A stretch of 45,704 nucleotides of DNA from Moniliella sp. 'wahieum' (taxonomy: Eukaryota), in NCBI GenBank assembly GCA_003971905.1, contig RSEE01000020.1:744001-789704 (forward strand), in the 5' to 3' direction. The notes under the pieces are model-generated. The model saw nothing but the letters and a program-made list of their open reading frames with translations, was not told where the DNA came from and did no database searches. Position numbers and translations under genes: made by a program. Position 1 is the stretch's first letter. Each line of letters opens with the position of its first letter. This document shows positions 4,701 to 38,833 of the stretch, piece after piece.

Positions 4701-6226
4701 AGCAAGTCCGCGCGCTGGTCCCCGCGCACCAACTGGAACCGGCGCAGCGAAGCAAGGTAGGCCTTTTCGAGCAAGGCGCAAAAGCGGTGTTTGATTTGGT
4801 CAATGATTGGCTCGCGCCCCACCCGCACCACCGTCTCCTTTTTGCGGTGCACATAGCGAAAAATATCGATCGCATCCGCCGTGCGAATCTCAATGGCACT
4901 GATGTGGAGCTTGTCGATAATCTGCTGCACCACCTCGGGCGACTTGCCCGGCGTGGCGGAAAGCGCGAGGATGCGGAAGGAGCGGTTGACCTGCATCAGC
5001 ATGGCGACAATCACCGTATATGCATAGCTGCCCGTTCCACGGTGCGCTTCGTCAATTACCAAGCACACGATTTCCTCGGGCTTGAGCAGCCCCAGTTTCA
5101 GGTCGTTGGCCAGCGTCTGCGGCGTCATGTAAAAGATCCGTTTCGCCCCATAGTCCACCTGCCGCAACGTGCTCTTCGTCTCGCCAGTCAGCTCCACCGC
5201 CACATTCCAAGGCAGACCACAGATGCGGTGGCAGGCCACTTGCTGCTGCGCCACCAAGGACGAGTGGGAGCAACAAAGATAATCTTTCCAGTCGGGTACC
5301 AGCGAAAGAAGTTGAGCATCACAACCGCTGCAATAAATGTCTTGCCGAGCCCAGTAGGCAGGGCAACGAGCACATTGCTGAAAGCCCAAAGGGTCAGTGG
5401 CGCGCTCCCAAACGGTGCAGGAAGGGGGAGAAGAAAGAACACACTTAAACAGGGCCTTTGGACAATGTTGAACTGGTAGTCGCGCACGGGCATATTGGTA
5501 GGGTAGATCCAGGTCACCGCAGCTTCGAGATCGACCTTGGGATGTACAGTGGTCTGCGAGGAACGAGCAAGACCCTCGTGCGCCAACCGCGCGTTCGCCC
5601 GGTCCGCATCCCAGTCTTCTACATCTTCTTCCGCTGGCTGTCCGGACTGGGGAACGGGTCGCCGACGGCGCAAAGGACCCGAGGCGGCAGTTTGGGACTT
5701 GTGCCAGCGCTTGCCCTGCCCATTGCGAGTTTCTGGCTGGGAGGTGTTTTGGACAGATAGCAAGCCGGGTTGGCGTTCGTCGACCCTATTGCCGTACAAA
5801 TCAACTTGCCCTCCAGCTGCATAGGCTGCAGCGGTAGGTGGATTAAAGATCCGGCGAGGTAGAGGGCGCGGGAAGCCTGATTTGGCAAACCAGGCTGGTC
5901 CTCATCAATGCCTGCCAAGACAGCGTTCGGACGATCGTCGACCCCGACATCGTCGTCGCTGTCGAGAACAATTGGGGTGGTATAGCTGGAGTCGGCGGAG
6001 GCGTTGGAGGTTGCTGTGGTGAGGTTGGGTTGGGGTTGGGGCGAGAGGGAGGGCGCTGGCGTTGGCGCGGGTTGAAGAGTCGTGGCTGGGGGGCATGGGG
6101 TCGTTGCTGTTGCTGGGGCTGTTGCTGTTGCTGTTGTTGCGGGTGAGGCGGAGGGGCGCGCATGTCGAGGTGGGCGATCAGCTCGTCGGCTGAGCCAAAC
6201 TCGTCGTCCGAGTCGGCAGTGGGCAT
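1764..6226 (-). CDS. MPH1: Mph1/Fml1/FANCM-family DEAH DNA helicase
   Basis: Likely start [12 protein letters not shown] at 6226. Motifs [73 protein letters not shown]; acidic C-terminal [10 protein letters not shown] segment. Intron near 5380-5444. Many frameshifts, so the C-terminal end is approximate. Confidence 0.92.
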
Positions 6227-13400: not shown

Positions 13401-15857
13401 TTCTCGTCATTTTTTAATCCTCATCGGGGCTCTTTCTCCGAAACGTTAGGACCGAGAGAGCGTGTGGAAACGAAGGGTTCGTCGACTGAGTTCGCTAACA
13501 GTGGTATACGCTGCACACACCCAAAGGATGGGCGAAGCAAGATGTGTGGGGGTGTTTTTGCAGTTAAAAAGGAGTGCGATTTGCGGTTGAAGCTGTGGGG
13601 ATGTAGAAGCACATATCAACGCGGAAGAGGAAGCAGACACTCTGCATGTGATGGTGTCCGTCGTGCATCGAGACTGGAGCTGTCACGGGGGGCGCCGCCA
13701 GGGGCCCGCCCTAGGGTTTTTGGGGTACAATCCCTTAGGCGACGGTAGGTCGACTCACGGTAGTTTCGGGCTTAGGCTGGTTGGTGTGTCCGAGCGGAGC
13801 TAGGGACGAGGAGAGGCCTTTGGTGGGGCGGCTGCACGTGTGGCAAGGCTGCGTCTGCACCGGCTTGGGCCGTAGTAACGTGTCTGAAGCCTCCGGGACT
13901 TAGGGACGGGAGGAGGCAGCGGCGGACAAACACTGCCTTAACTGGGACTGAGAATCGCCGCGACCGAAGGAGGGCTCGCGCGATTGGACTGACGAAGGGC
14001 TGGAGGACGAGGTCGGAGATGTCGGACGCTAACAAGAGGAGCTGCCTGTACTGGATCAATTGGCTGGAAACGGGCAGGAGTCGGACAAGATAGGCGGGAA
14101 AGGACGAGGGTGGAGACGAGAGATGACGAGAGGATGATGAGAGGGGACGAGAATGGAAGGTGGGGGAAAAGATCCCCATCAACCAGGGGTACAGGCAGGA
14201 TCAAAAGGGAAACGGATACAAGAGGGGGTGTAGAAAGGAAGACATGTCAAAAGCGGGGTTGGTCGCCACAGGCGCGACCGAGAAAGGAAACGGAAACGGG
14301 ACGGGACGGCAGTCGTCGCCACGGCACTGGAAGCTTGGTGGCCTTATTTAGGCCGGCCGACTTGGACTTGGGCGGGGGGGCGACTATTGTCGCGCGGAGC
14401 ATGGCCCTTCGGCCACGATACTTAATTTAGCCAACCATCATCACACTTGGTTGGCCTGCGGTGCACGCTCTACTGGGCATGTTCGGAGCAGGCGGGCCTT
14501 AGCTTGGGTCGGACCATCTCGTGTCCGCCGCAGCCCGTGACAGGAGCGTTCCACACGTTGAGCACGTTCGATGCAACATGTAACACGTTCAACATATCTG
14601 TCCAGGCGTAAGCGCGTACGTAGGTTCACCTGAATATTGCATCTTAATGGTGAGTTTGATTATTGCGGCAGGGGCAGAAACATGGTGTGAGCGGACGGGG
14701 CATGCTTTCGTACTGGGGCAGTGTTGCCGAATCTTCGCAGGGGAGAGTTCAACAATCAGTCTTCAGTGGCCCGTGCGCAGCCAGCATGGCTAGACAGGAG
14801 CTAGTTGGCCCAGTCCGAATCTGACGATGTGGCAGTTCGTTCGGTTGTTGGCCTAATAACCCAGTGTTTGGCTTCTGCCCTCCTATTCGCCACGCAGTGT
14901 ACTCACCGGATCACACTGGCCGCGTCGGTGTTGGTGCATGGTGGCTGACGCGCTCTGGCGCACGGGTGTACGGGTGGAGCACCTGCGTCATCGCGTCGTA
15001 GATCAGCTTGATGGATGGATGGTCGGTCGATGTCGATGATGGATGATCCATTCTCAATACCATGGCATCGTCATGCATCACTACGTCACTCTGAGGCACT
15101 TGCCATCGGTCGATGCCATCCGTGGAGATGCACCTGTGGGTGATGCAATGGGGGCGTGCCAATGGGGAGCCAGAGTGTGCTTGTGGTTATGCGCCCAATG
15201 GCAGCCCCGCCAGCCCGCCGCACCCCCGGATCCGAATGCTGTTTTGTGGTGATCGAGGTGACCAGTCTAGTCACGGAGTACTATAACACTGTAGCCCACT
15301 TTTCAAGTCACACGCGCCACGCCCTTCCGGGTTGTGTGCCCGGTGTGTGGCGGCTGGCGTCTGTGCCTCGCTTTGTGCCTGTGCTTCTGTTTTGTGTGGG
15401 CCAGCACATGTCGATTGCTTCGGCACTGGGGCAGCTGCTTCCGGCCTCCGCGGCGTAAGGCGAGACGGGCGTTGTGTCGATGATTGAGCGTGTATCGGTT
15501 ATGGTCGGTGATCGATCGCAAAGCAGTCCAGTGCTCTGGGGCGGCAAGGGGGGGGGCTCCGCGACCCCAGGTCGCAATCTCAGCCCAGCTCACGCCCAAC
15601 CGAGCCGCCGTCGCAGCAGGATGAGGACCAGGGCGGGCACGCGGCCACTCCCTGAGCCTCCCGCTTGGTTTGATTCGGCAGGCAGGGGTCTGTCTTCGCC
15701 ATCCCCCAACTCGTTCCATCGCCCTCCGCCGCACGGCAGCCACCCATCAACACCCCGCCTCCTTTGGTACAAAAGGCAGCATTTTGGTATACTTCACCGC
15801 TGCTCCCCCACCCCCACCACCGCTAACTCACCGCTGCCCCACCACTATTTCCTCACC

Positions 15858-17871
15858 ATGGCTGTTGTCGACGGTACCATCACTCTCACCGACTACCTCT
15901 GCGAGCGCCTGAAGCAGCTCGAGGTTGAGTTTGTCCAGGGCCTCCCGGGTGACTTTACCCTCGCCATGCTCACTCGTTGGCGCGAGGCCGGCCTCGGCTG
16001 GATCGGCAACTCGAATGAGCTCAACGCTGGTTACTCCGCCGACGGTCTTGCCCGCGTTCTCTCCGAGGGCCACCCACGCCCCGCTGTTCTCACTACTACA
16101 TTTGGTGTTGGTGAGCTGAGTGCCTGCAACGCCTTGGGCGGTAGCATGGCTGAGCGCCTGCCCGTCATTCACATTGTGGGCACTCCTTCGACGAAGGCTC
16201 AAGACGAGGGTCTCTTATTGCACCACACGCTTGGTATGTTCCTACCCCATATCCCCTTTTGATTTTCTCTAGTGCATCTGTTTGACCTCTGTCCATATCC
16301 ATACCAGGCGACCACAAATTCGACGCGTTTCTCAACATGGCCCGCCAGATCACGGGCTCCCAACTAGACTTGTACCAGATGCACCGTGAGGGTCGTCTGC
16401 CTCTAATCCCCAAGGGCACCAAGGCGGAGGACATTACCACGGGACTCGATGCCTGCCGTGCCATTGACTCCATCCTTGAGTTCTGTGTTTCCCGCTCGCT
16501 CCCTGTCTACATTGCGTACCCTTCGAACCTGGTCGACCTTCCTCTGCCCGTGTCGGCAGCAAAGCGCCTTGAGGAGTACAAGCTTCAAACGACTGTCACG
16601 CCCAACAACGCTGAGGTCGAGGCCAGTGTGCTCGAGGAGATCCTTGGCCGTATCAAGGAGGCGACTCAGCCCATCATTCTGGTCGATGCTTGCGCTTCGC
16701 GCCACAATGTGGTTGCTGAGACCCGCGAGTTTGCCAAGGTGACGGGCTTGCCAGTTTTCTCCACTCCCATGGGTAAGACTACCATCACCGAATTGGACAA
16801 CGAGCAGTTTGGTGGTGTGTACCTCGGTACTTTGACCAAGCCTGCCGTCAAGGACATTGTCGAGTCGTCAGACCTGATTATCTCTGTTGGTGCTCTTCTC
16901 TCTGACTACAACCGGCTCATTCTCCTACCGCACCAAGCGCACAGCCACAATTGAACTGCACTCGGACCACACAAAGATCGGCTATGCCGTCTTTGATGAC
17001 ATCAAAATGAAGTGGCTCCTGCCCAAGCTTACCCAGGCCTTGGCCGGCGAGCAAGGAAAGTACTTGGCGTCTACAAAAGCCCTTCTTGCCCCCGTTCGTT
17101 CGCTGAACATGAACACGCTCCCCTCGCCTGAGCAGGAGTTTGCTGAGCTGGATGAGCTTACCGCCTCTCGCCTCGGCGGTGCAGAAGGCTTTGCGGCCAA
17201 GGATGTGATCACTCAGGGTTACTTCTGGCCCCGTATGGGCCGCTTCTTTGAGGAAGGTGACACCATTCTTGGTGAGACGGGTACCTCATCGTTTGGTCTG
17301 ATCGATGTGACGTTCCCCAAGAACTCCAAGCTGATTGCCCAGATGCTGTGGGGTTCGATTGGCTACACGGGCGGTGCTGTACTCGGGGCTGCACTTGGGA
17401 TGCGCCAGTTGAAGCAGCACAACCCAGAGCGTCCTGGACGTACAGTGCATTTCATTGGCGATGGCTCCCTCCAGCTTACCGCCCAAGAACTTGGTACGGT
17501 TTTCCGCCATGGCCTGACTCCCCTCATCTTTATCCTCAACAACGACGGGTACGAAATTGAGCGCCAGATCTACGGGCCCGACGAGTTTTACAATGACATT
17601 GCGATCTGGAATCACTCCAAGCTGATTGACTTCCTCGCCGCCCCCGGCCTGGACCAAACCCAATGTGCCCTCGCACGAAGCGGACCCTGTGCCATCCACG
17701 ACGCAGTTCCACGCGGTCCACACCAAGGCAGAGCTCGAGGCATTACTGACCAACGAGGAGTTCAACAAGGCCGACAAGGCTCACGTGGTGGAAGTCTTCT
17801 TGCCCCGCGGTGACGCTCCTCCAGCTCTCAAGCGCCAAGCTGCTCTTTCGGCTGCTAACAATGCGGCCTAA
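15858..17871 (+). CDS. PDC: Pyruvate decarboxylase (TPP-dependent 2-oxo-acid decarboxylase)
   Basis: GLPGDF, NELNAGYSADG, TTFGVGELSA, LLHHTLG|DH (intron 16234-16307), ETGTSSFG, LWGSIGY, GDGSLQLTAQE..LNNDGYEIER. Frameshifts near 16910 and 17640-17670. Confidence 0.95.
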
Positions 17872-19126: not shown

Positions 19127-20415
19127 TCAGTCCTTCTTCTCCACCGGGTCCCCACGTTGAACTTCTGCTAGCGCCCAGCGCCGAAACACGTAATCGTACT
19201 GAGCGACTCCTGTCAGCCGCACCTTACCCTGTGATAATGTCGTTGCCGCCCTCTCGACCCAGGCCGGGTCTCGCAACAAGCCCCGACCCACCGAGATGAG
19301 CTGCGCTTTGCCGTTTAGCAGTGCGTCCTCTGCCACTTGACCCGGATAGTCTCCGCCTTGCATCAGGCCCACGGTGGAGACGAGCGCCTTTTGACCCAGT
19401 AGTCCTTCGTCCCGCAGTGCCTGGGTGACCCGTTCCGCCAGGGGTAGCTGGAAAGCAGCCTTCATCCCATTCGCCCCATGACCCGGCCGAGCCGACTCCA
19501 TCGTCTGTCCTCCCCCGATACGTCGATCACCTCAGCTCCGGCACGCACCAAGAGCGGAGCCAGGCGTACGGCCTCCTCGATCGTCCATGATGGCCGTGGG
19601 AGGTGCTCCTCGTAGTCTGACCCGTTGATGCGCACCCATACGCTCCGCTTTGTTTCGGTCTGAACTTCTTCCACAATCTCCCGCAAGAGGCGAGTGCGGT
19701 TGTCGAAACTGCCTCCGTACATGTCCTGCCGTTCATTGGTTGCAGGCGAATGGAAGGAGGAAAGAAGGTAGCCATGAGCAGCATGAATCTCAACAAAGTC
19801 GTCCCTGCTTGGAACGCACGTTGAGCAGCGCGTACAAACGCACGTTTGATCAATCCTACCTCATCCAGTGACAAGACGTGCGGGATCAAGCATCCCTCTG
19901 TATAAGGGATGGAAGAAGGTGCCACCGTCTCCAACACCCCCCCTTGGGAGGCAGGAACAAACCACTTGGCTTCTTTGGGCCCCATAGGTGGGAGCCCAGT
20001 AATTTGCCTTGCGTCCTGCATGCGCCAACTGCACTCCCACTGTGACCGAGGGAGAGAGCGCTTTGAGGGTTGCGACCAAGCGCGCATGACTCTCTACCTG
20101 TTCCTCTTGCCACAGCCCAAGATCTTGAGGTGAAATTTTGCCCCTTTCCTCGACCACCGTCGCTTCCACAACCACCGTCCCCACCCCGTGCATGGCCGTC
20201 GCGCCCAGGTGAGCGTGGTGGAACGGCGTCACCTTCCCGTCCCCCTCGGCACTGTACATGCACATGGGGGATTGCACCACCCGGTTCCGCAGCAGAAGCC
20301 CGCTCTGCGGCAAGCGCACCTCCTCCAACAGCTTGGGCACTGACGTTGCCGGCTCCACCACGTCTGTCGTGTGCCCGGGCAAGGGCAGCCCGGTGTAGGG
20401 GATGTTGAGTCGCAT
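19127..20415 (-). CDS. NADH:flavin oxidoreductase, Old Yellow Enzyme family (YqjM-like)
   Basis: RNRVVQSPMCMYSA, VVEATVV..GKISPQDLGLW, GVQLAHAGRKA, EIHAAHGYLLSSF, YGGSFDNRTRL, SVGRGLLRDP. No intron recognised; several frameshifts. Confidence 0.92.
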
Positions 20416-21625
20416 CCAAGGAATGCGAAGGCGTGGAGGTGTGAGGGGCGAAGACTTGTCGATCTGGTGCGAGGGTGGCGGCCTGCAGGATCTGTACTTC
20501 TAGTCCGTGAGTGTACTTAAAACTCCTGGGAAGAACATTGCGCTGCGCAGTCTCTGATCGGTACGTTCAGTAAGTAGTCATCGAGTCCTCCCAGATCTCA
20601 CCGATCACCATCTTATCATTATGTACATCAGGCCCATCAGGATGTGCATGAGGCTGCACCAGGTACCACAGACCTCAAGCACCATGGCGACCACTTCCGT
20701 CGGTGGGTTGCGCGCAGCTACTAGTTAGGGGGGTTGGCATACCTCGGCGATAGCCTCGATGATGTCGATGATCGACAACTTCGGTCAATATTCCATCGTT
20801 TTCCCCCTTCATGGAAAATGATCAAGGAGACGCACAATGAAACTCATCGCTTGCAGTAGACTGCCAGACATGCCCTCACATGCGTCTTCGATGTGCATAC
20901 TATGATGCCGTGACCCCCACTTCCCGGCCCACGCGCCGTGGTTCTTCGGCAACCGAGATTAGTTTAAGTAACGCACCCACAGGCGTGTGGAGGTGCACCA
21001 CCTCTGCGCTGTGGGTAACAACACCCTTATGAACGCGCCCTCAGAGAAGTCATCGGGCGGGGGCGGGTAATAGTAGATTCGATCTTTGGTCTAGCTGCGG
21101 CCCATCATATCTCCTTACTAGTTGCAGTTGGCTGGCGGCAAGCAAAGTACTTGCGCAGTGGATCGGTAGTAGGGTTGACATATGCCCTATCGAATGTGGC
21201 CCATGCTGTTTAGCGCACTGTCACATAACCCGCATTTGCGTTTCAATCCTCTAGTTCAGCGCCAAAGGTGGAACCCGTTTTAGTGGGTGTGGGCGACTTG
21301 CGGCTGGGAGTAAAAGTAGAGACCCAGGCCTTATTTCCCTATCGCGGCCAAACACATTGAAGATGTGAGAGAAGGTGATTGATCGCCAAAGTTGTCCAGT
21401 GAAAAAGTAAGCCGAAGTACAATCCAGTATAGAGAATCTGCCCCCGTAACATCCAACATGATGCATGATGAGAGCAACCAACCCCCGAAGGCAATTTAGC
21501 CACATATCCTCGTTGAACGTCGCCATTAGGCATGACTATGGTCGCGCAAAAATGGAAGTGCAAACTGAGGAATGTGTATAGACAGATGGATATGCCAAGG
21601 GTAAGGTTGTCGTCGACAGCTCTAG

Positions 21626-22130
21626 TTACTGGGCCAAAATTTGGCGGACAAATTGTTCGTAGTTAATGTTGCCGTCGCTGTGTATGTGGGGGGGGGGGGG
21701 GGGGGGTCAGCAAGGACTTGGGAACACTAGCAAGGGATGAGGGATTAACGTACGCAGACACGGGCACACCCTTGAGCAACTCGTCAACCTCTTGGTCGGT
21801 CAACTTTTCTCCTAGTGAGGTCAGCACGTAACGCAGCTCGCCTGCGCCGATAAAGCCATTGCCTTCCTTGTCAAAGACTTGGAAGCCCCGGATGAATTCA
21901 TCAGGCGTGCCAGCTGGCTTGAAGCCATTGGGCCGTTGTAGGATGGAGACAAACGTGGCGTAGTCAATCTCGCCTGGCGGGGGCACCGCAGCGATCAACT
22001 CAGCCACCTCCGCTTGGGTTGGGTTCTGGCCCAGCGCGCGCAGCAGGTCGCCCAGCACCGACGAGGGGATCTGGCCCGTGCCGCGCTTGTCGAACAGGGC
22101 GAAGGCCTCCTTGAACTCGGCGTCGGACAT
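21626..22130 (-). CDS. EF-hand myosin essential light chain (Cdc4/Mlc1 type)
   Basis: [61 protein letters not shown]. Intron 21678-21753 gives [18 protein letters not shown]. No frameshift. Confidence 0.95.
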
Positions 22131-22823
22131 GGGGTGGAGGCGGTGAAGAGGATGGGTGGGGTGGTTGAGGCAGGCTGGGGGACTTGTGTTGCGGGAGAAC
22201 TGGACCGAACAGAGCAGGCCGACTCCACTGGGCGCCACACCGGCCTACACTGGCGCTGGGCCTGGGCCCGTGTTGGTTCTGACACGCGCAGCATTTCCAT
22301 TCCGCCCTGCCACGTCACGCGTCACGCGTCAAGCCTCGAGCTTCAGCCTGTAGCGCTTCAGCGCTTCTGCCTATCAGCCTCGTGCTCTTCAAGCTTCAAG
22401 CTTCAAGGCGAATGCTCGGGAACGCCGGGGGGTGTGCGGGGCTGCTGCTGCCTCCCCACCACCAGCACCGCCAGTGAAGTAAAGGGATACGCGATCCGCC
22501 CTGTCACTCGTCACGTACGAGATGAGATCGCCGAGTCTACCTTCGCTCTTGCCCTCCCACCTTTTGTGGATAGGCATGTTATACATGTCTCCTGCGGGCA
22601 CATTAGCCAAGCAATCTCATGGTGACGCTCATAGTGACGGGTCACGCACCCAACCATATGGGGAGAAAGAATACAGGCAACTAGCGCGAAAAATAACATC
22701 ACAAGTAATAACTGAGCGCAACGAACGGTACAAGGAGGGAGGGGTTGGTGGGCGCGAGGCACCATAGACAGAAGAAAGAGTGCGAAGCCGGCGATCTGCG
22801 CACGCCTGCAATGGTTTTGCTTG

Positions 22824-25800
22824 CTAAGTCGTAGGTTCATGCGGTTCAGGTGGCATGCCCTCAATCCGCTTGAGTTCGTCAACCGTTGGCCTGTTGGGCT
22901 GCCTCCAACAGAAGGTTACCCTGGGGATCAATCCCTTCTCATACGATTCCACATGCGGATACACGTCTCAGGTGCCTCAACGTGAGACGTTTCCACAGGA
23001 GAGGGCGACCCTGTTTATCCCTCCGTCTGGGCCCCGCCACCAGTACCCATACCGTCGCTGGAACGTTTCCATGTCCCCATTGCAGTTCTCGTAGAACTTC
23101 TAAGAGCCATCTTGGCATCCTTCAACCGGGATAAGTAGGCATCTGTTTACCCGTCAAGGTCCACCAGCTCCACCGCCGTGGGTCCCGAAGCGCCTCCTCC
23201 AAAGTCCCTGGTATCTCCCTGTGATAGCCTTCGGGCATCCACGTCCACTTTTCACTTTCACCCACATCTGAGCCTCGACGCGGGGGCCCACAAAAGGCTG
23301 AAAAGTATTTCCCAACCAAGTCTCCGGCCGGTCCAAGTCAACCTCTAATGGCCGCGGCTGCTCGTATCTGGGCGGAGGAGGACGAGCAAGAATGGCATGT
23401 AACGGGTTGTAGAGGTTGCCTCCCCCTCTAGACGGCGGAAGGGGGAGAGGGGCAATAGGAGACGGAAGGCCTGCAGGGGCAAGACCCGGGGGGGAGCCCA
23501 AGTTAGAGGGCCGCCTGGTAAGGTGTGAACAGGAGGTCTGGAGGGGGGGCCAGGCGGTAAAGCAGAGGCACCGGGGGGCAGGACGGGGGCATCGGGAGGC
23601 AGAACGGGGGCATCGGGAGGCAGAACGGGGGCATCGGGAGGCAGGACGGGGGCATCGGGAGGCAGGAGGGGGCATCATCGGGAGGCAGAACGGGAGCGTC
23701 ACCAGCATGGGCCGTGGGTAGATCCCTATCAACCCCCAAAGGGGTTGGACCCCCGGCAACGGCAATCGTACCCGAAGGCGAAGCTGGCTCGACCTCAACC
23801 ACGATATGGGCACCTATCGATGGCTGCCTCTCCAACCCAGCGGGTTGCATAGGCATGTCCATCTGAGTGTCTTCGATCTCAGTCCCCATCGCAGTCTCCA
23901 TCTCGGTCTCCATTTCGGTCTCAGCCTGTCTCGCCTCCTCTTGGTTCACAAGGGATGTAGCTGTGGCAACCACTTCGGGGTTTTGCGAAGTGTCCTGTGC
24001 AAGGGCGCCATGGGACACCGTCGCCACGCCGTTGGTGGGCAATTGCTTGAGAAGTTGTTCGCACAATTTGCCCAGTTGCTCATTTGTCTTGTTGGCATTG
24101 AGAAGCCCAGCCGTGAGGTCACTGATCTTTGTGGTGACTTCGTTGACCTTCATGGTGAGCAGGGTCAGCTGTTGGCTCTCGGCCACCCCCTCGATCTCCA
24201 TGTTGGGGTAGGACTGTTCATGCCGCATCCGTTGGTTGAGAAGGCACCGCAGCAACGTGACGTCCTGGGAGTCATCGGACACCCCCCCCCACCACTGAAC
24301 CTCCGCTAGGCTTTTCAGCCGCTCCCCATAATCCTGCACAGTAAAGTTAGTATCGACAGGAGGATCATGAGCCGGGCGGGACATACTGGTGCGTTGACGA
24401 ACGCATCTTGAGCGCCGCCTCGGCGGAAACAGAGAGCTATATGGTTCGAGTAGGAGGCGTTGAAGCGAGGAACCTCCTTCAGCGTCTCTTTGAACCACCG
24501 GTTGACCGTGTCGAACTTGGCAGACTCGGTTGCATCCGAGGGCAGTCCATTCGTCCCCAGAGCAGGGAAGATATAGTCATCTTCTCTGATGGGAAAGCCT
24601 CGTATGTGAAGAAAGGCTCCATACGTCCAGCGCATCACGTGCCCCCGCGGCCGGCCGGTGGTCATTTAAGTCCCATAGGGGGTAATGCATCGCGGGAGAA
24701 CCATCCTGCTGGCTCGCTTTGCGGAAGGGGGTCCTAATAGACATCGCTCAGTCAGCAGCGCACGATGCAGGCGAGCAGGCTGCGCACACATACGAAATCT
24801 CAACGCCCAGGCGCACGCGTCGGCCGGCGGCGTCTCCAGGCTGGCAGGTTTGGATCAGCTTGACGTCTTTCCACGTCAGGGTAAGCACCTCGCGCAATCG
24901 CGCCCACAGACGATACGCCAGGATGCTCACCGTCTTGAGCAGCAGTGGCCTGGCCCACGTCGGCTGCATCGACTGACGCATTGCCATGTCCAAAAGCGCT
25001 AGCCAGGCAGGGTCGGTCACGTTGGGCCGCTGAGGGAAGCTCATATCCACAGCTGCCGATCCAGGTGTTCCACCAAGAGCTGCAGGTCGGGGTACAGCAT
25101 TGTGTTGGATAAATGGGAGTGGGAGCGGACAGTGCGGCTTTGGCGGAGGAAGCTTGCCCGCATGTAATCGTCGATGATCGCGCTGCGTGCCGGGTTGCCC
25201 GTGCACGTACCCGTCTGCTCGTTGCATCGAAACGGATCGATGCGACTCGAGTCGTCAAACTTGATCTGGAAGAACCAAAGGAGCGCATTCTGCATGGAAG
25301 AACACGTGTCGTGCTTTTGTGGTTTGACTATCACGTGGTATTGGAACCAGAGCATAACCACTTCATGGGTACGCTTGCTCTTCGTCTCCAGGTCCGTGAT
25401 GCGATGCTTGACTGCGTCCATGCCCAGCACCCACGCAATGAAGGCCTTCACCCTCTGCTTGTACTTGCCAATCGTGTTTCGGGACAAGGACTGGCCAGAC
25501 CTGGCGTAAATATAGTCCACCTCCCGGTCGGCAGGTCGGATGCGGAGCTCCACTTGCGTGGTATCGTCCGCGCCGAACTCGCTTCCTCTAGGGTAGAGAC
25601 GTTCGAACCACTGCTGCACAACCGCTCTGTCCACTCGATGAGGCGTCTCCTGCTGCCGGAGTTCGGGCTGGGGCGGAAGAGGCTCGTGCCCTGTATCTTC
25701 ACCGTCCTCATCGTCATCGTTCAGGTCAAAGAGGCGCGGTTGCCCGTCGTCATGGACATCCTCCCCCTCGGCCGCCTCGCGGTTGTTGGCGTAGTCCTCT

Positions 25801-25981
25801 TGATCATAGGCAAAGCCCTGCTCATCGTCGGCAGGTGCGGGGGGACGGGGGGAAGGATCTGGCAGGTTGACGCGGTCAGGTGGGGGCAGCGCCACGGCAG
25901 CGCGGGTGGCCGATGAGCGCGCCCGGCCATTTGCTCGTGCGCGTCTACGGGGGCGCGGAGCGGGGATGAGGAAGGGGGCAT
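22824..25981 (-). mobile_element. Crypton-like tyrosine-recombinase gene with two introns (transposon or domesticated derivative)
   Basis: GNPARS, AYRLWARLREVLTL (Arg-I), TPFRK after intron 24734-24793, DDYIFPAL, CFRRGGAQ, intron 24334-24386, SLAEVQWWGG..TLLRCLL, coiled coil, Pro-rich repeat, C-terminal KFYENCNGDMETFQRRY. Start ATG (25981 or 25930) and element ends uncertain. Confidence 0.82.
23567..23697. repeat. 21-bp coding minisatellite, about 6 copies, inside the recombinase gene
   Basis: Unit GGCATCGGGAGGCAG(A/G)ACGGG; one minus-strand frame reads DAPVLPP. Confidence 0.92.
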
Positions 25982-26130
25982 GTGTGCTCAGCTGACGGGG
26001 GAAGGGCGGGGGGGGGGGAGGGCACTGGCGGTGTCGAGGGCGAGCCGGCGCGTGTTGGTGGGGCTGGGTGGCCTGTGTACGATGGAGACTGCTTGCTGCG
26101 CTGCCGTCTGCGCCGTCGCGTCAGGCTCCA

Positions 26131-26173
26131 GTCACTAGTCACTAGCACTAGTCACGCGTCACGCGCGTCACGC
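26131..26173. repeat. GTCACTA/GTCACGC heptamer array upstream of the recombinase gene
   Basis: gtcactagtcactagcactagtcacgcgtcacgcgcgtcacgc read directly. Confidence 0.8.
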
Positions 26174-26422: not shown

Positions 26423-28846
26423 TCAGAGAAGCATCCTCTTGGTTTCGCCCCGCGCCTCGAGCTCGGCCCAGCGCGCATGCGCCTCGGCGAGGCGATGCTG
26501 CACATGGGAGCGGGCCAGCATGCGTGCGACCCAGTCCAGCAGCGCATCGTCGTCCTCCACCACAAAAAAGGACGACAGCGCACGCAGCAGCGTTTCGAAC
26601 CCCCGCTGCGCCCGCGGTGGGCGGGGCGCAAGCAGCCGCGCCTTGCTCGGCATCTGCCCCAGCGGAAGCGTAAGGCCCACCCCCCACAGTAACGCCAAGC
26701 CCGTCATCAGCAGCACATCCGGGCCGAGCAACAGATACGCGTCCCAGATCCGCAGCTGCGTCGCAAACGGCACAACGCCTTCGAAGAGCGTAATGTACCA
26801 CCGCGTCGCGTAGCTGCTCGGGGTAATGTCTGCCTCGTCCAGAGCGGCCGCAAGGGACGGAACATAGGCGCGAACGAGGCTTTGGTGCACATAGAAGAGC
26901 TGTTGGAGCCCGGGAAATCCTGGTTGGAATATGTTGTGGAGGTGGTAGTGATCGTGTAAGCCCATCAACGCCGTGTACGCCGCCAAGGCTGAAGGAAGCT
27001 GAAGCAGAAACGTGGCAGCGATCGGGCCCATGCCCTGACAGTACCCGCACGTATCCGGACAGTGCAGACTCATAGCATGTAACACTTGGAACAGTTGAAC
27101 CTGGCCCTTGCCATAGCGCGTGTAGAATGCCCAATGACCATTCAGCGTCCGCGGCACATCCAGATCGATCTGAACATCGTAGCGGCTAGGTACCGTTTGG
27201 GCGTGCACAAACGCTTGTTGCTTCTCTGCTCGGACTTCGCTCCGACTCCTACCGAGGCAGCACGACGATGGTGGTGGTAATGCGTCCAATGCGTCTCCCC
27301 TCGGGGATTTGGGACTCAGCATCCGACCGGCCTTCATCCGGATCAGTAGGGGCCACACCACAGGTCGCCATGCCTCTGGTACACCCTTGAATACCGCTCC
27401 TCACCGCCCCAGGGGAGACATCCGTTTAAATTCCACCTCGTCTGGAAGAGTAGACACGGTGGGGTGCTCTTGGACGAGGTGAGCATCTGTTGCCACTTGG
27501 CCGTTCGTGCTTGGTCCCGTCTCTGATGGACCTGATCCAATGCACTTCTCCTTTCCAGGCCGAGCCGTGCGTGCCTCTCGGCGGGCGAGCGAGGCTCTTC
27601 GTCATCGATCGACACTTGCCTCGTCACCGACTGCGCGAAGCGAGTGGCGGGGGGAACTCGCACCCAGCCTTCCATCCGAACGGATTGCCTCGATCCGAGG
27701 GCGGTGCGGAAGCTTGTGGAACACCTGGCTGGGCAAGGCCAGAGCCCGTCCTTGAGACAACTTATCCTCCCCTTCTCCCTGGAAGAACCCGTGCCGGTCT
27801 TTCTGACGTTCTGCCTAGCTCCGCTCGGGTGCGACGGGTCCGGCGACGGCGACGCATCCCTTCTCCGTTCGCGAGAGGTGTGGGCAGAGTGAGAGGGGAC
27901 GGCAAATGGAGGGACGAACGGGACGATCCAGATGGCTCATCAGAGAGCCTGGAGCATGCGAGGAGGAAGTGGAGAGGGCATGGTGCAACGCTGGGTCTGC
28001 CACAGAGGAACTGGATCCCAGGGCGGAGCTTCCGGGGGGCTCAAGAAGGGAGGTGGTGGCCGCAACGGCTTGGACAGGGGCCGTGGTGCCTTGCCTGAAC
28101 GTGTGCGCGGCCACACCTTCGCTCATGGAGGCCGTGCTGGGGCGCTGGATGCGGCCGCGGGCGGGGGGGGCATGACCAGCTTCAACGTCGTTCGGCGCGG
28201 AGGGGGAGATGTGAAGGTCGGAGAGGGCGGCTTGGTTGGACCGACCTGGCTCGGCCCAGGGCAGGGCACTGGCCTTGTGCCGGGTCATCTCTTCTCCCTC
28301 CACTTTTCCATCCCCGGGAACAGGGTGCGAGGCAAAGTACGTATAGGTGGCGCGCACCATCGCGCCCTCCTTTGCATCGGGGGCGGTCCAGTCGTCGGCG
28401 GGCGGCGGGGGGGGGTGATTGCGGAGGAGGGGGGTGTGCGGATGGAGGGGGGATGGCGCGGCAAACGACTCGCCCGGACAGGGCGCGGGAGATGGAGTGG
28501 GAGCGCGTCGGGGGGGCGCAGCGCCTTGGGGCGGGCGGAGGTGGTGGTGGCCATGCGGAGGTGGTGGTGGCCATGCGGCGCCCACCGTGGCGGATGCGCT
28601 GGCGGATGCACTATTAGCGGATGCGCCACGGGCGGGGTCGCAGCTGTGGCTCTGGCTGTGGCTGGGCGCCCGCGCTGAGGTAAGCACCAGCCGTCCATTG
28701 TTCCACGCTTCAATTTCAACTTTCAGGAGCCTTGCGCGCCGCTGGTCGTCCACTGGCGCCGCTGCTCTCAGATCGCCGGGGGGGCCATACGCCCCGAGGG
28801 TTGGTATCTGACTGAGGGACAGGCGGGGCAATCCCCCGGTTTGCAA
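26423..28846 (-). CDS. TBC-domain Rab GTPase-activating protein
   Basis: QIDLDVPRT (Arg finger), GYCQGMGPIAA (Gln finger), FQPGFPGL, YATRWYITLF, LRIWDAYLL. The 5' part is Pro-rich and frameshifted; true start not resolved. Confidence 0.85.
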
Positions 28847-32494: not shown

Positions 32495-34278
32495 CTACGG
32501 AAGGGACTGCTCCTGCGCCAGCGCCTGGCGGCCTGCGATGGTGAGCGTCGGGCGTCCGGATGAGTACTCAGTGGAGAAGAACTGCGGGACAAACTCTTGG
32601 CCGGTACGCTTGCGCTCCGCAGCCAAGTCGCGCTGCTGCTGTTCAATTTCCTGCTTGGACTTGGTCGCTTGCGAGTACTGCTTTGTCTGGATCGCCTGCG
32701 TCACCGGCGCCCAAATCCGACGCGACTCGAGTGGCCCATGCTCCTCCACCGGCCGCACGGTCTTGGGCGTGACGTTGAGATCAGCCAGGTTGACCAAAAG
32801 GCGTGACTCCTGCGCATGACTGCGTTAGTGCTGTGTCCTGTCTGATACACAGGCGGATGGGGAAAGGAAACGGTGATGCGGGGGACTTACCTTGTCTCCC
32901 TTGACTTTGAAGGTGATCTTGCCATTCCACTGACCCTCAAAGGTAGCCACAACCTTGTCCTCAGGAACCTGCTTGACTTTGGTCCAGTACGCAGGCCCAC
33001 TTTGCTCGCCATCCGGCAGATCCTCCTCGTCCGTCACACCGGCCTCACGCACCCAATCGTACTCGTAGATCACTCCCTCCACCGCATACTTGGCCTTGGT
33101 CAGCCATCCCTCCTCCTTATACTCGATCAGGCACGGAGCCGGGTGCCACCAGTGTTGTCCGCACGGTCACTGGCGCGCGAACCGCCATAGCAATCATCAC
33201 AGTTGCATCCGCCATGCTCACCCACAAGCTGCCGCGCAACGGCCATTGATCGAAGCAGTGGGATGGGTAATGCGGTACCGCTCCCCGGAAGCTTCTTTGC
33301 CAGTGGCGGTGGGCAAGAGTTTGATGAACATGCCCGATTCAACGAGCCAGCATAGAGACGCACCGACGTGCCCGTGAACCGGCCTGACAATTGGTCCACC
33401 CCGGAAATCTCAATCCCCGCTTCGGCCGAGGACCCATAAAACGTCGACACGGGCGGGTGATGCGATACCTGCTCGGTCAGGAACACGATCCGCCGCTTCT
33501 GCGAAGCCACCTTGCTCTCTGCCTGGGCCGAGTCACTGCTTAGTACGTTCAGCGCAGCCTCCGAGCCGTTAACGGGGTGGATGAACCTGCGGTGCGCAGT
33601 TTAGCAAACCCGCTTGGGCGTCGCGGGCGCCGCGGGCGCTGCGGCAGCGGCGGCGGAGGCAGCTGCCTTGACAGGGGCCAGGGGCTAGGCAACGGCTGCT
33701 TGTTGTCCAAGTTCTGCACGGGAACAATTTGCGCCGCCTTCTTGTGCACGATCGGTCCTACATCCCAGTGGCACTGGAAGTGCTCACCCAAGATGGAGTT
33801 GTAGGGCTTGCAGACTCCATTCTTGATCACCTTCAGATCCTTGGTCAGGTGAACCGCAGCACAGCCAGCATCCGGTCCGAGTGGTCAAAGTCGGGGATCG
33901 TCGCAAAGATATCCGCCCGTCGAGGAGGTCCAGTACTCAAGGTTGGGCTGGGGAGACGGGGCGTGTTAGGATTGGACGGACGAGAGGGGCAAGGCAGGGG
34001 GCTAGAGAGACGTACAATGGGCTCCATCAGGTTGGCCGGGAGAGAGAAGCGGCTGGATGCAAGCAACAGAGCAGGGTCAGTCAGATGGGCCGGGGTGTGG
34101 ACGGGAGGGGAGGCGTACATGGCGGCCAAGTCCTTGACGCCACAACCTTCTTGAGGATGCCGAGCAGGGACTTGATCTTGCGACTGGGTCTGCTCCTCAT
34201 TGTCGGCCGCGCTCAGGTCGGCGCCGGCGTCGTGGTCGAGGTGGACGAAGGCGTCGTCGGGGTCGTTTCGGGCGGCAT
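32495..34278 (-). CDS. Oxysterol-binding protein (ORD-only Osh family)
   Basis: RFSLPANLMEP, RMLAVLRF, KPYNSILGEHF, signature EQVSHHPP, LESRRIW, KQEIEQQQR. At least three introns and several frameshifts. Confidence 0.92.
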
Positions 34279-35787
34279 GGCGCGGCAGGGGCGGGGGCGG
34301 GCAGATGGGGGCCAGGCGGGGCGGATGGTGGTTGGGTTCGCGCGGTGCTATCGAACGTGGGCAATCAAAGCGTCGCCCAAGCAGCGGCGACGCGTGCTGA
34401 CCTAAGCCGTGGGGGCGGGCATTATGTCATGGGCAGCGTGCGCTGGGCCACACTGGCGCTGGGCGGCGGGGCGGGCGCATCGGGCCATGCATCACACATC
34501 ACACACATGCACATGACCACATCACACACGCCTGTCGACTGCTGTGCCTGCGCTGCGTTTGCACTGCATGGTCCTTCTTATAGTGACCAGTGACTAGTGA
34601 CTAGTGCTCGTGACAGAATAACGACTTCGATGGAGCGAGCAGCTACTGACTACCCCCGATGCGGATGCATGGGCCTGCTGACGACAAGAGACGGCCATCT
34701 TACCCACCTCTCCCTCGCCTCTGCCACGCAGGCCCCACACCGGCAGCCGACCCAACGAGCATGGCCGAAGAAGGATGGCGATGGGAGGCGAACGCTACTA
34801 GCATCGGACTGTGGGGAGCCCAAGCGGGGCTTGTGATATCAAACCAAGTCTGTAGCATTTCCAGCCCATATTGACTGTGTGTGTGGACTGAACGCAGGGA
34901 AGAGATGTGGGGATAGCTGCTGTTTGGGGTTGCCTCAGGAGGTGTTGACTCGTGAGAGGAACACAAGTAGTATACCTCTGGGCAGACACCCCGGGATTTC
35001 TTCTTCTTCATGGCCTGATGAGAGGACACACGCGGACTGTGGCTACCACAAGGCTGGTAAGACGACGTTTTTTGAGTCATAATCTCCTTGAAGTGTGTAG
35101 TGGATCCGAATCTTTTCGTAATCGTTGGTGAATCCGCCAAACCCATCCGCACCCATGGGGGCTACATCCAATCTGGAAACGGTTAACTGGAAAACCAGAG
35201 AGACGTTACCTTCTTGTAGAAGACCAGAGAGCAGGCAGTTGATGGTATATTACCTTGCACATGAGCTACAGAGCAAGTAGGAAATATTACTGCCCTCCAG
35301 GACCGAATATTGGAAGGAATGAACCCGAAGGTTACGCGCTTGGGCTACTGGCGCTACTACACCACAGTGTAGCGCCACACTTCTGGAGATTATACCACCA
35401 GGATCATCATCCTCGGTGGGGGGCGCATTGAAACTGCCACCAAAAAGGCGGAGTGTGAGCGAGCCTGCCGTGGGCCAAACACCTGTCGTGCGCGTGCGGA
35501 TAACCTATTGCAAAAATGTCATGATTCCCCAACATAGTGGGAGACGACAAAAGCAGGGAGAGTATAGATTGCAGGAAAAAGAGAGAGAAGCATTGCATAC
35601 CAACTTTTCAAACAAAGGAGAGAGGCCAAGATCGACCCAATAGTAAAGAATGTGCGTTCCACGGTGCAAAAGATACATATTGGCAGTCCAAAGACGGTGA
35701 AAAGAAAAGCAAGTAAGTTATAATGAGATCGACGATTCAAGCCCATTTTGTATCTGTTCTGGTCGGTCTTCCTTGTAAATATATAGC

Positions 35788-37499
35788 TCAAGCTGCGTCC
35801 CAAAAGGCGAGCAGGCCAGGGAAGTTGGGCACCCCCAAACCCGTGGCTGGGTCCCACCCTGGACCCGAAGGGAAGCACAAGTTCAAATCCGGACAGCCAC
35901 AGGTGGTGCCGTTGGTAATGTCACGCGCACCGCACCGCGCTGTTGACCGTGCTGGTAGAGACGTGGATGAACGAACCCGACCGTCTTCCGACCTTTTTGA
36001 CGCAGCGCCGAGTTGACCAAGGCCAGATGGGCCGCCCAAATCGGTGCCGAGGCCGAGGTTCCCGCGACGGTCATGGTCACATTGTTCACCACGACAGCGA
36101 TTCCTTCCCCAAACGCCGACACATCAGTGAGAGCCCGCCCGGTTTGATTGACGTATTTGGTAAGGTTGTGGGGAAGCGAGCGAAGATAGGCAGAAGAAAT
36201 GTTGGCCTGCCAGGAGCGGGCCTTGTTGAGGTTGCTCCAGCCTGCGCCGGACCAGACGCCAACGTTGGGTGAGGGCGCGGTATAGGGTTGGTGGCCTGTT
36301 CGGGATTGGTACCGGGGTGCTGCCGACGATGAGAATGGAGGAGGTGGTAGGCCAAGGGGGCTTAATTCCGGTCGTGCATGTCTCCCCAGTTTGGTCCACC
36401 CCAGAATCCCCGCTAGCAAACACGGTGGTCGTTCCCTGGGCGGCAAGGGCCAGCGCTGTTTTGTACCACCGCCGAGCATCGTCCTTGGTCATATCGGCTT
36501 CGGATGGTCCGTACGAGACACTGATCACTCCCGGCTTGACGGCGCTGTCGAGTACATGCTCCAATGGCTTGAGGTATGTGTCGCCTTCATTCATCCCACT
36601 CAGGAGAAAATCAACCTTGAGTGGCGCAGCAATCCCCACGGCCATTTCCAAGTCAAGCATCGTCTCTGTTCCGCCGTACGGACCTGATGCAGAAGAAGAG
36701 ATTTGATAGGTGGAAGTGTCAACCTTGTAGTGGGCCATATCGGGGCGATTAGTCCGAAGGTAGGTAGTCAGGTCCGAATCGAGGAATTGCTGCGACTCGC
36801 CAAAACCAATGACAAGTAGATCCGTCTCATTGCTCGGAACGGGATTAAAGCGGGCCGAGCCATAGTGCTGGCGGATGCAACTCAAGGTAACAAATGTATC
36901 TGAGCACCCTTGGGGATGCTGTTTCATTGTCTGAATCTCCCTTGCCACCTCACTCGGGTTGAAGCGATGACTGACACGATGCAACGGAGCCGGAATAAGG
37001 AAGGAGGTGAGAGGCGTAATGCTCTCTACCGCTTCCTCCAGCTCGTCGGGGACGGTGTACGACTCGGAGCGATAGAAGCGAACGTTGCTTCCCAGCGCGT
37101 ACAGTCCGAGCGGCGCCTGGAACATGTCGGTCACAGCTTGGTGGCTGCTAGTGAACGATACCCGATCCAGCGGGCTCCATTCAGCGTCCAGGACATTTTG
37201 CTTTTCGAGCCAGCTGGTAACGGTAGCCATACGGGATGGAGGGGGAGCCAGGTAGTTCTTTACCTCGTCGGGGGTGAGCCAGCGACCGTCCATCTGAGCA
37301 GCAAGCTCAGTCACTTTGTCCTCCAGCGCGCCAAGATGGTGCGAGGTGAGGTGAAGAGTTATCCGATAGGGCTCGGCTGCGTCAGCGCGGGCACCGACCA
37401 CCTTTTTGCTGGCTGCTCCGGCGGTGCATGGTGGACACGCGCGGCCGCAACGAGACTTGCGCCAAGGAAGGCGGACATGGCCAGCCTGGGGAAGAGCAT
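35788..37499 (-). CDS. Secreted sedolisin (peptidase S53, tripeptidyl-peptidase-like)
   Basis: Signal-like start MLFPRLAMSAFLGASLVAA, prodomain, ETMLD (catalytic Glu/Asp), ISVSYG, SGDSG, AGTSASAP (Ser), DITNG, GWDPATGLGVPNF. TATA-like element at 37581-37588. Frameshifts present. Confidence 0.93.
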
Positions 37500-38305
37500 G
37501 GTGACAATAGCGAGTCACACAAACTTGTGGGTGGGGGCGGGGATCAGGGACGTAGACCAGGACGATGTCGGGAGAGGGAGATATATAACAGTAAAAATCC
37601 GAGGCCGAGCAGTGGCGCTCTGGTGGTCATAGCGCTTACTTGCTATATGCAGCAGATCCACTCCACTCAGTATACCCTGTGGTTACCGCTACATAGCCGC
37701 CGGACCCCGCACCGGGGCAGTGTGTAGGCACGTCCCGCTGTGCGGCTTAGGTGGGTACGAGCGGAGTCAGCGAGTGGTGCACGGGGCGCCAAGACTGGCC
37801 TGCTGCCCGGTGCCTGACGCCAATGTGGCCCCGCAAGGTGCTCGTGTGCTTGGACTTGGACTCAACGCACCACGCCAGTGGATCCACCGGGGATTCTCCC
37901 GCCACTTCTATATACTCGCCGCTTTGGCGCTCTGCCATGGCTCCCCACCCCACTCCCAAGGGTGCCTTGCATTCGTAGATCCGTAGGTGCTGTTTTTGCC
38001 GTTGCCATCAGCTCTGTGCGACATGTCGCTGCCGACGGCTCTCTCTCTCTCTCTCCATCATTTGGCCGCTGCTGCCATCATATTGCCCCTGTCAGTACAT
38101 CTCACCACCACTCGCCACTGTCGATGCTCCTCCGGCAACCTCCTCCTTGCGTGCTATACTGCGCCGCTTACTCAACCGCGTCCATGTTAGTCCCGCTATT
38201 GTCTTCGAAACCCAAAATATAATGTGGTGTTGGATATAGATGTGAAACACGGCGCGGGTGCTTGATCCAAACTACTAGCTTTGGGAGCAGAGCTTTCAAC
38301 TGATT

Positions 38306-38354: not shown

Positions 38355-38468
38355 TTCTCCTTCTGAATGTATTGAGAAGAAGGCAGAAGGGATACACAGA
38401 AAAAATCGCCAGAGAAGCTCGGAAGCATCTGCAGTACAGGTTATATCAGGTCGAACCCTGGACAGTCT

Positions 38469-38561
38469 CTCTCCTTAGCTCAGTTGGAAGAGCGTCAGAT
38501 TGTAATTGGTTAGCTGGAGTATCCGCTCTGAATGTCCTGGGTTCGACTCCCAGAGGGGAGA
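38469..38561 (+). tRNA. tRNA-Tyr(GTA) with 20-nt intron
   Basis: Acceptor CTCTCCT/AGGGGAG with A73; D-arm GCTC/GAGC; anticodon stem TCAGA/TCTGA with GTA at 38502-38504; intron 38506-38525; T-arm CTGGG-TTCGACT-CCCAG; T-run just downstream. Confidence 0.93.
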
Positions 38562-38833
38562 ATCTTTTGAAGATTTTTCCTAGCCACAAACTGAGTTCTA
38601 CCCAGGCCACAGCCGGGAGGGTGTGCGCGGGTTTCCCACACCCAGTCTTCTCTTCCTTTTCGCTCCTCCTACTGGACAGCGAGTTCCTAAGGCATCAGCG
38701 GGAGTCCATCCCGATTGGCCTGTTTAATGTTCAACGTTCAGCCTCCTTGTGAACACATGAGATGCGCAGGTTCATTCATGCAAGGAACACATGGGAGCAG
38801 ACGCAAGTGAAAAAAGCTCGGATGGAAAGTCCT

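Follow-up and report, generated by a model that had tools for sequence, protein, structure and literature searches.

A Crypton-like recombinase gene with cysteine at the nucleophile position in Moniliella sp. 'wahieum'

Structure of the gene

The DNA analyzed here (the window) is a 45,704-nucleotide stretch from Moniliella sp. 'wahieum' (GenBank assembly GCA_003971905.1, contig RSEE01000020.1, positions 744,001 to 789,704 of the forward strand). Its minus strand carries a gene derived from a Crypton-like tyrosine recombinase, which was read from an ATG at 25981 to a TAG at 22826-22824. The coding length is ∼3,045 bases, with ∼10 frameshifts as assembled. The protein keeps Arg-I, Glu, Lys and Arg-II among the catalytic residues, and Tyr is absent from the nucleophile position, where the codon is TGC (Cys). 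A paralogue on contig C73 has the same codon there, and the two genes have diverged under purifying selection. Features are listed in Table 1, using the coordinates of the window.

A preliminary description had presented the gene as one with clean introns. Its introns and catalytic codons stand: canonical splice signals were confirmed at both introns, which splice in frame, and Arg-I, Lys and Arg-II are present, together with a Glu three residues past Arg-I. The acidic N-terminus was also seen in the translation. What had gone unmentioned is that there is no single open frame. Seven of the frameshifts (∼25047, 24618, 23676, 23312, 23148, 23101 and 23024) were placed by homology or by a repeat unit that is one base short, and approximately three more (∼25940, 23460 and 22970) by eye alone. 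Homology between the window and C73 proteins at their extreme N-termini is likewise judged by eye. The coiled coil that had been described is probable and would lie downstream of the recombinase domain: the stretch matches Pfam Laminin_II weakly (E = 0.0035), and the predicted model of a homologue has a long helix at the corresponding place. The predicted core-binding domain gave ESM Atlas feature matches of 0.95-0.97 to clusters that include ALOG (62% of members) and Phage_int_SAM_1 (13%), and matched Pfam Phage_int_SAM_1 only at E = 0.25.

Table 1. Features of the recombinase-derived gene and of other parts of the window
Feature	Position	Strand	Details
Crypton-like tyrosine-recombinase-derived gene	22824..25981	-	exons 25981-24794, 24733-24387, 24333-22824
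Acidic N-terminal stretch	25690..25840	-	from translation; paralogues have one too
Core-binding (SAM-like / ALOG-like) DNA-binding domain, predicted	25047..25490	-	ESM Atlas, profile match
Box I, retained	24889..24900	-	Arg-I 24900-24898; Glu 24891-24889
Intron 1, 60 nt, phase 2	24793-24734	-	GTATGT, CTGAC branch, TAG; in-frame splice
Catalytic Lys, retained	24718..24720	-	
Box II	24423..24443	-	His 24443-24441; Leu CTC 24434-24432; Arg-II 24425-24423
Intron 2, 53 nt, phase 0	24386-24334	-	GTATGT, CTAAC, CAG; in-frame splice
WWGG(V) motif	24280..24294	-	GTG (Val) 24282-24280 after nine-G run
Cys (TGC) at nucleophile Tyr position	24244..24246	-	C73 has the same
Probable coiled coil, 3' of recombinase domain	24040..24175	-	weak Pfam Laminin_II; homologue model
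21-nt tandem repeat x6, Pro-rich linker	23567..23694	-	one unit lacks one base
Conserved C-terminal domain	22960..23345	-	56% identity to C73 over 126 codons
EF-hand protein (calmodulin-like), downstream neighbour	21663..22130	-	
Rab-GAP TBC gene, upstream neighbour	26423..28564	-	
GTGAC/CTAGT motif cluster	26126..26171	-	150-190 bases upstream of ATG
DEAD/ResIII-type helicase	3172-5785	-	two frames
Thiamine-pyrophosphate enzyme	15854-17870	+	N, M, C domains, pyruvate-decarboxylase-like; three frames
Flavin oxidoreductase	19861-20499	-	
Oxysterol-binding protein	32495-34280	-	
Pro-kumamolisin (S53) protease	35788-37626	-	maps to C57/C67 twin contigs, another synteny break
Short dispersed repeats	∼35210-35385, 38460-38570, 14432-14542		many genomic copies, 79-97% identity

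Recombinase family and fold

A profile search with the box II region yielded 126 proteins from Agaricomycetes and Mortierellomycota, which share the motifs HCFRRGGAQ, WWGGW and LIRYLLDE. The window protein, with X placed at the breaks, scores 164.9 bits against a HMMER profile of 48 homologues. The full-length homologue P0020 was modelled with AlphaFold (mean pLDDT 72), and the best structural match of the model is Cre (Foldseek E = 9.7e-8; Z 17.6, rmsd 5.6, 278 residues aligned). Ndc10 is also a structural neighbour of this model (Z 10.6, rmsd 16.1, 249 aligned). Identity with Cre is ∼13%, and the family, like Cre, has a Trp-type third His position. The window protein thus belongs to the tyrosine recombinase superfamily by descent, with a predicted Cre/XerD fold as seen in the P0020 model. 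Searching the PDB by sequence with the family profile returned a single, irrelevant match.

The closest relatives are proteins from Exobasidiomycetes (Ceraceosorus CEH14089.1, Exobasidium UZJ51929.1, Jaminaea PWN30671.1 and Parajaminaea CAO1614038.1); further members come from Agaricomycetes and Mortierellomycota, with one oomycete match. Six copies from the Moniliella genome and the Exobasidiomycete-type proteins form one group with support of 100/99. These relatives have the same domain order and motifs as the window gene, are 25-32% identical to the genome copies over the recombinase region, and retain both His and Tyr; a candidate reading in which related fungi retain the same dead gene was rejected on the last point. 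In Exobasidium, four accessions encode one identical protein and two more cluster members are present, a distribution typical of an element that has recently been active. The P0158 cluster (Exobasidium rhododendri) and P0199 (Globisporangium splendens), multicopy proteins that are nearly identical and have the full catalytic set, suggest that a family of active Crypton-like transposons, apparently undescribed, is spread across Basidiomycota, Mortierellomycota and an oomycete.

No description of the HCFRRGGAQ/WWGGW family was found in the literature searched, although subscription journals and Repbase, which lay outside the search, may hold one. CryptonS elements of oomycetes and diatoms have a similar box II (HSFRRGGAQ), a conserved C-terminal region and no recognized GCR1_C (PMC3212892). 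In the two CryptonS rows compared, DRGAW and FNYV/FAYV stand where this family has WWGGW and LIRYL (PMC3212892), and none of the six supplementary files of Kojima and Jurka 2011 contains WWGGW (PMC3212892). CryptonS elements are bounded by TATGG; no TATGG pair bounding the window gene was found, and no such element was defined around it. Metagenome locus scans found no relative, and protein searches with N-terminal pieces gave no matches, which is weak evidence.

The C-terminal domain had been thought possibly GCR1_C-like. For the window protein this is unsupported: Pfam gave no match to GCR1_C in the C-termini of the window, C73 and C35 proteins at E values up to 10, and neither NDC10_II nor GCR1_C was matched in pieces of the window protein or in 23 homologues. 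The Exobasidiomycete-type C-terminus is more GCR1_C-like, with four of six relatives matching below the cut-off (E 0.024-0.17). Comparison of the window-type with the family C-terminus by hhalign gave 0.6-28%, a weak link. The domain itself is conserved between the window and C73, with an alignment score of 277 versus 50 for the best of 20 shuffles. An ESM Atlas search with the C73 domain gave no usable match, its AlphaFold model (mean pLDDT 46) was unusable, and the fold search with the P0020 model barely tested the C-terminus of that protein.

Catalytic positions

Column counts were taken from a redundant set of 223 homologues (232 rows minus 9 off-family), 71 of which are gapped at the column of the window Cys. 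Tyr occupies that column in 147 of the 152 homologues from outside this genome with a residue there, and His occupies the His column in 219 of 222. This Tyr was taken as the nucleophile because it is invariant and would lie on the helix that follows the Trp turn, as Trp315 and Tyr324 are arranged in Cre (PMC2943603). The next Tyr downstream of the window Cys reads Phe in C73.

Replacement of the nucleophile codon by TGC, as first described, was confirmed. Since the same TGC occurs at two independent loci on different contigs, sequencing error is unlikely. One Cys was found among database homologues (P0118), and it has a Tyr-bearing cluster mate. In Cre, Tyr324 is essential: all 19 substitutions abolish recombination, and almost every active-site mutant retains DNA binding (PMC2943603). 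Tyr324Cys is recombination-dead, and short side chains fail to reach the phosphate (PMC2943603).

The Leu reported at the HxxR His is indeed encoded by CTC, three residues before Arg-II, but its proposed origin by a CAC-to-CTC change is perhaps the wrong history. HMMER and a DNA alignment to C73 assign a His at 24443-24441 to the consensus column, with three residues inserted after it, whereas an ungapped protein alignment favors a His-to-Leu substitution. A YSS(H) motif in another frame, reached by compensating errors, was also considered; it needs two extra errors and is disfavored by the DNA alignment. By analogy with Cre, Leu at this site would not by itself be disabling: 14 of 19 substitutions of Cre His289 remain active and Leu is tolerated (PMC2943603). 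An active Starship captain carries Tyr at the His site (PMC10104507). As for WWGGV, the Val codon does lie beside a nine-G run and C73 has Trp, so the suggested G-run error is plausible, and Val may possibly reflect a compensating pair of indel errors.

Paralogues and selection

Protein searches of the assembly, which score their best candidates only, located seven loci: the window, C73, C128, C35, C46, C17 and C65, the last through its C-terminus alone. His and Tyr are both kept in C35 and C17. In C46 the His is intact and an indel falls in the Tyr codon. The nucleophile Tyr is present in C128, where a second Tyr replaces the His. C73 also has Tyr at the His site; its nucleophile codon is TGC, set within RCLLN as in the window. 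C128 and C17 have one in-frame stop each. In C35/C46 (L013/L014), the catalytically most intact copy, Arg replaces the catalytic Lys. A search with the C73 Cys segment found the window and C73 as sole loci. The position of intron 1 is common to C73, C35, C46, C128 and C17, and intron 2 is shared with C73 alone; the Tyr-type copies C35, C128 and C17 have neither the TGC Cys nor intron 2.

The window and C73 form a clade in two trees (support 100/95 and 100/97). Branches in this Cys clade are no longer than those of the Tyr clade, to which it is ∼33% identical. No near-identical copy of the window gene was found in searches that score best candidates only, the nearest paralogue reaching 69-78% in short stretches; the absence of many dispersed near-identical copies, on which the first reading depended, therefore holds, with one copy found per Cys gene.

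Window and C73 proteins are 53% identical over 407 codons, with differences at the three codon positions of 0.35, 0.28 and 0.60. By the NG86 method, dN is 0.40 and dS is ∼3.05, which is saturated. For the TBC gene, dN is 0.09 and dS 0.95 between subgenomes. This divergence is far below that of the window and C73, so the two Cys genes split before the subgenomes did. In-frame stops were absent from 503 window and 423 C73 conceptual codons and from the C-terminal alignment. A simple model predicts three stops at 4% neutral decay, and their absence bounds such decay at ∼4% (P = 0.05). Under the same kind of model, two independent TAC-to-TGC changes by 4% decay have P ∼0.0007. Given these values, the Cys most likely had a single origin in the ancestor of window and C73, before a long period of constraint, and, if so, purifying selection probably outlasted loss of the nucleophile. 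By comparison, the C35/C46 allele pair is near neutral (dN 0.032, dS 0.041; control genes 0.016 and 0.061; Fisher p = 0.003 on approximate counts).

Frameshifts and assembly errors

The assembly comprises 69.5 Mb in 223 contigs and contains several related subgenomes. Neighbors of the window gene match the twin contigs C59 and C56 at 74-82%; the twins differ from one another by 1-5% substitutions and by many one-base gaps. Five three-way blocks, covering 7,436 window bases of neighboring genes and including introns and some misalignment, contained 44 copy-specific frameshifting indels in the window, 38 in C56 and 32 in C59. In the 9 of 15 control frames judged to be coding, comparison with the window gave 31 frameshift steps in 1,773 columns and comparison of the twins gave 36 in 1,843. 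Five stops also appeared in these alignments, probably from wrong-frame stretches. One- and two-base indels make up most of the observed errors, and the upstream TBC gene is likewise frameshifted. At ∼3.3 per kb, the frameshift density of the window gene lies inside this background of housekeeping genes, and the frameshifts are therefore uninformative as to intactness.

The assembly resembles that of a hybrid or old polyploid, having twin contigs ∼2% apart and single contigs ∼20% apart. Twin pairs are C59/C56, C35/C46, C5/C27, C17/C65 and C57/C67, and a CNNM gene is present on six contigs.

Genomic context

The two host genes that flank the window gene are separated by only 4.3 kb, in which no reverse transcriptase or long (terminal) repeats were found. 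The EF-hand neighbor may encode a protein like myosin light chain or calmodulin. In C59/C56, ∼60-66 kb separate the EF-hand gene from the TBC gene, and the block next in the window is inverted between them. These comparisons used match coordinates and 1.5 kb beyond the TBC stop in the sister subgenome. The motif cluster upstream of the ATG is homologous to the post-TBC spacer in C59 (score 48, versus 30 for the best of 200 shuffles), which places the gene directly behind host spacer at a rearranged junction. The coincidence is weak evidence, because rearrangements are frequent in the assembly. Since synteny is broken at the junction, element ends (4-6 bp direct repeats) could not be set. No termini were shared with C73 or with Tyr-type copies upstream, and downstream there was a 20-base simple-motif match with C35 only. 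No near-identical twin of the C73 or window flanks was found.

The C73 paralogue lies between 3.3-kb direct repeats of 91% identity (L011, C73:86581-89853, and L041, 95031-98286). The repeat contains a long reading frame whose motifs resemble those of a GH35 beta-galactosidase. C128 was considered as a syntenic counterpart of C35 and rejected, as the genes alone match within ∼10 kb on each side.

Elsewhere in the window, clusters of GTGAC, ACTAGT and ACGCGT lie in intergenic DNA upstream of genes (26134-26171, 34590-34614 and 22310-22330), and the post-TBC cluster is kept between subgenomes; these are possible regulatory sites. Most of the thiamine-pyrophosphate enzyme gene is matched at 13 other genomic places (68-82%), a large family even for a multi-subgenome assembly.

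Interpretation

On the best reading, the window gene is a retained, non-catalytic DNA-binding derivative of a Crypton-like recombinase, and we regard this as about an even call. The window gene and C73 would be the two surviving members of an old subfamily that arose from a transposon recombinase. The ancestor of both would have exchanged its nucleophile Tyr for Cys and acquired the second intron, and purifying selection would since have acted on both daughters, in the core-binding and C-terminal domains as well as in the catalytic fold. Judging from Cre, the protein may clamp DNA through its two-domain fold, together with the Arg, Lys and Arg that it keeps for phosphate contacts, and may oligomerize through the predicted coiled coil. 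It would form no phosphotyrosine bond and so neither cut nor recombine. It could be a sequence-specific DNA-binding or scaffolding factor that serves host regulation or, alternatively, interferes with Tyr-intact relatives encoded in its own genome, as a poison subunit or by blocking their sites.

The earlier proposal of a catalytically dead, host-recruited DNA-binding protein therefore survives as the best reading, with an old loss of Tyr, but the expected synteny was lacking and relatives elsewhere keep Tyr. The other origin offered for the Cys, a recently disabled element, is unlikely, as the Cys is shared with C73 and selection has acted between the two genes. Support for domestication had been sought in a single syntenic copy under purifying selection with conserved loss of Tyr. 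Instead, the two Cys copies are dispersed and accompanied by five or more Tyr-type loci in the assembly; selection (dN 0.40, dS ∼3) and a shared Cys were found, with a ratio that is rough and with no orthologue found elsewhere.

Several observations weigh against a retained host gene. True frameshifts and assembly errors are not separable here, and intactness of the gene is unproven. With dS saturated, the LWL85 and YN00 methods gave no whole-alignment estimate, and transposon lineages always show dN/dS below 1 in any case. In C59/C56 a CNNM gene (presumably MAM3-like) follows TBC, with no orthologue of the window gene at the matching site. Despite the older split of window and C73, searches that score best candidates only detected no gene of the Cys clade in the sister subgenome (C59/C56; dS relative to the window ∼0.6-1.0), which implies either that the gene was lost twice there or that the subfamily kept moving. 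The Cys genes sit at a rearranged junction or between direct repeats, like mobile DNA, and no flanking sequence common to the two was found. Searches of other organisms, scoring best candidates only, found no Cys orthologue. Cryptons are usually low-copy, so a single copy proves little (PMC3212892). Unlike known domesticates, moreover, the window protein keeps Arg-II and most of the pocket.

Two other histories accept the loss of Tyr and are each rather doubtful. The subfamily may once have been retained, or have been an element lineage, with the window copy now a pseudogene in which some of the frameshifts are real and masked by errors; we think this unlikely, though it has points in its favor. 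The ∼10 frameshifts, the Val for Trp and the disturbed His spacing (absent or different in C73), the loss in the sister subgenome, which suggests dispensability, and the visible decay of other family members (the stops in C128 and C17) all fit a relic. Its frameshift density, however, equals the background, there is no in-frame stop and neutral decay is bounded at ∼4%, the splice signals are intact, the C-terminal domain is conserved, and a shared, conserved Cys that precedes any decay is left unexplained. Alternatively, and also with low probability, the genes may still be selfish: as a lineage of elements without Tyr, they would persist because Tyr-intact relatives move them in trans, with their own protein serving as an end-binding or phosphate-activating partner in a mixed complex. 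A Tyr-less Flp can act within a shared active site; the Flp-type shared active site is mentioned in PMC4499138. Dispersed, non-syntenic copies confined to one subgenome, the retention of Arg, Glu, Lys and Arg beside Tyr-intact relatives in the same assembly, and the multicopy relatives in Exobasidium are consistent with this history. It is opposed by the single occurrence of each Cys gene, by the lack of shared termini upstream, and by an identity of ∼33% between the clades, a poor basis for a mixed active site.

A change of chemistry is improbable. The Cys could be a nucleophile (through a phosphothioester) or could help water attack, making the protein a site-specific nickase or unusual transposase. 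The Cys is common to two proteins whose sequences differ at 47% of sites; the transition-state residues remain, and the Tyr-assisting His is altered in both. Mutation of Tyr to Cys in vaccinia topoisomerase reportedly yields a site-specific endonuclease. On the other hand, one conserved residue at a background identity of 53% is weak evidence, and the inactive Cre Tyr324Cys, with its side chain too short for the phosphate, speaks against the idea (PMC2943603). No tyrosine recombinase with a cysteine nucleophile was found in the literature searched, which left out subscription journals. We give only a small chance to the combination of a functional Cys (a cysteine recombinase or site-specific nickase) with a subfamily that is still mobile; such a subfamily would explain lineage-restricted, non-syntenic copies at rearrangement junctions. 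A catalytic Cys would overturn the rule that the recombinase fold needs Tyr, and is judged unlikely. Least probable by far is an artefact, in which sequencing errors would have altered the codons of an ordinary active element. The assembly is error-rich, the P0118 Cys has a Tyr cluster mate, and errors could well account for the Val and the His spacing, but the same TGC occurs at two independent loci, and one- and two-base indels predominate among the errors.

Comparison with known systems

The previously drawn link to Ndc10 and Gcr1 holds as a parallel loss of catalysis but is an analogy only, those proteins being derived from CryptonF. Ndc10/Cbf2, Gcr1, Msn1/Hot1 and Cdg1 retain the recombinase fold and DNA binding after loss of catalysis; they are defined by GCR1_C and conserved across species, and their catalytic site is not preserved (PMC3212892). 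The window gene differs in coming from another family, with no NDC10_II or GCR1_C match, a largely kept pocket and no orthologue found. Animal DUF3504 genes (ZMYM2-4, QRICH1, KCTD1, KIAA1958 and WOC) are domesticated recombinases of CryptonA origin that lack Tyr, as here; all have also lost the second Arg, whereas the window gene keeps Arg-II (PMC3212892).

Reuse of Crypton recombinases without catalysis is thus known from CryptonF (yeast Ndc10 and Gcr1) and from CryptonA (animal ZMYM genes). If the window gene is a retained non-catalytic derivative, it would be a further case, from a family for which no description was found, in smut-related fungi. It would represent a stage at which the nucleophile alone is clearly gone and Tyr-intact relatives persist in the same genome, and would allow a direct test of whether domestication begins with binding to DNA or with suppressing the parent element.

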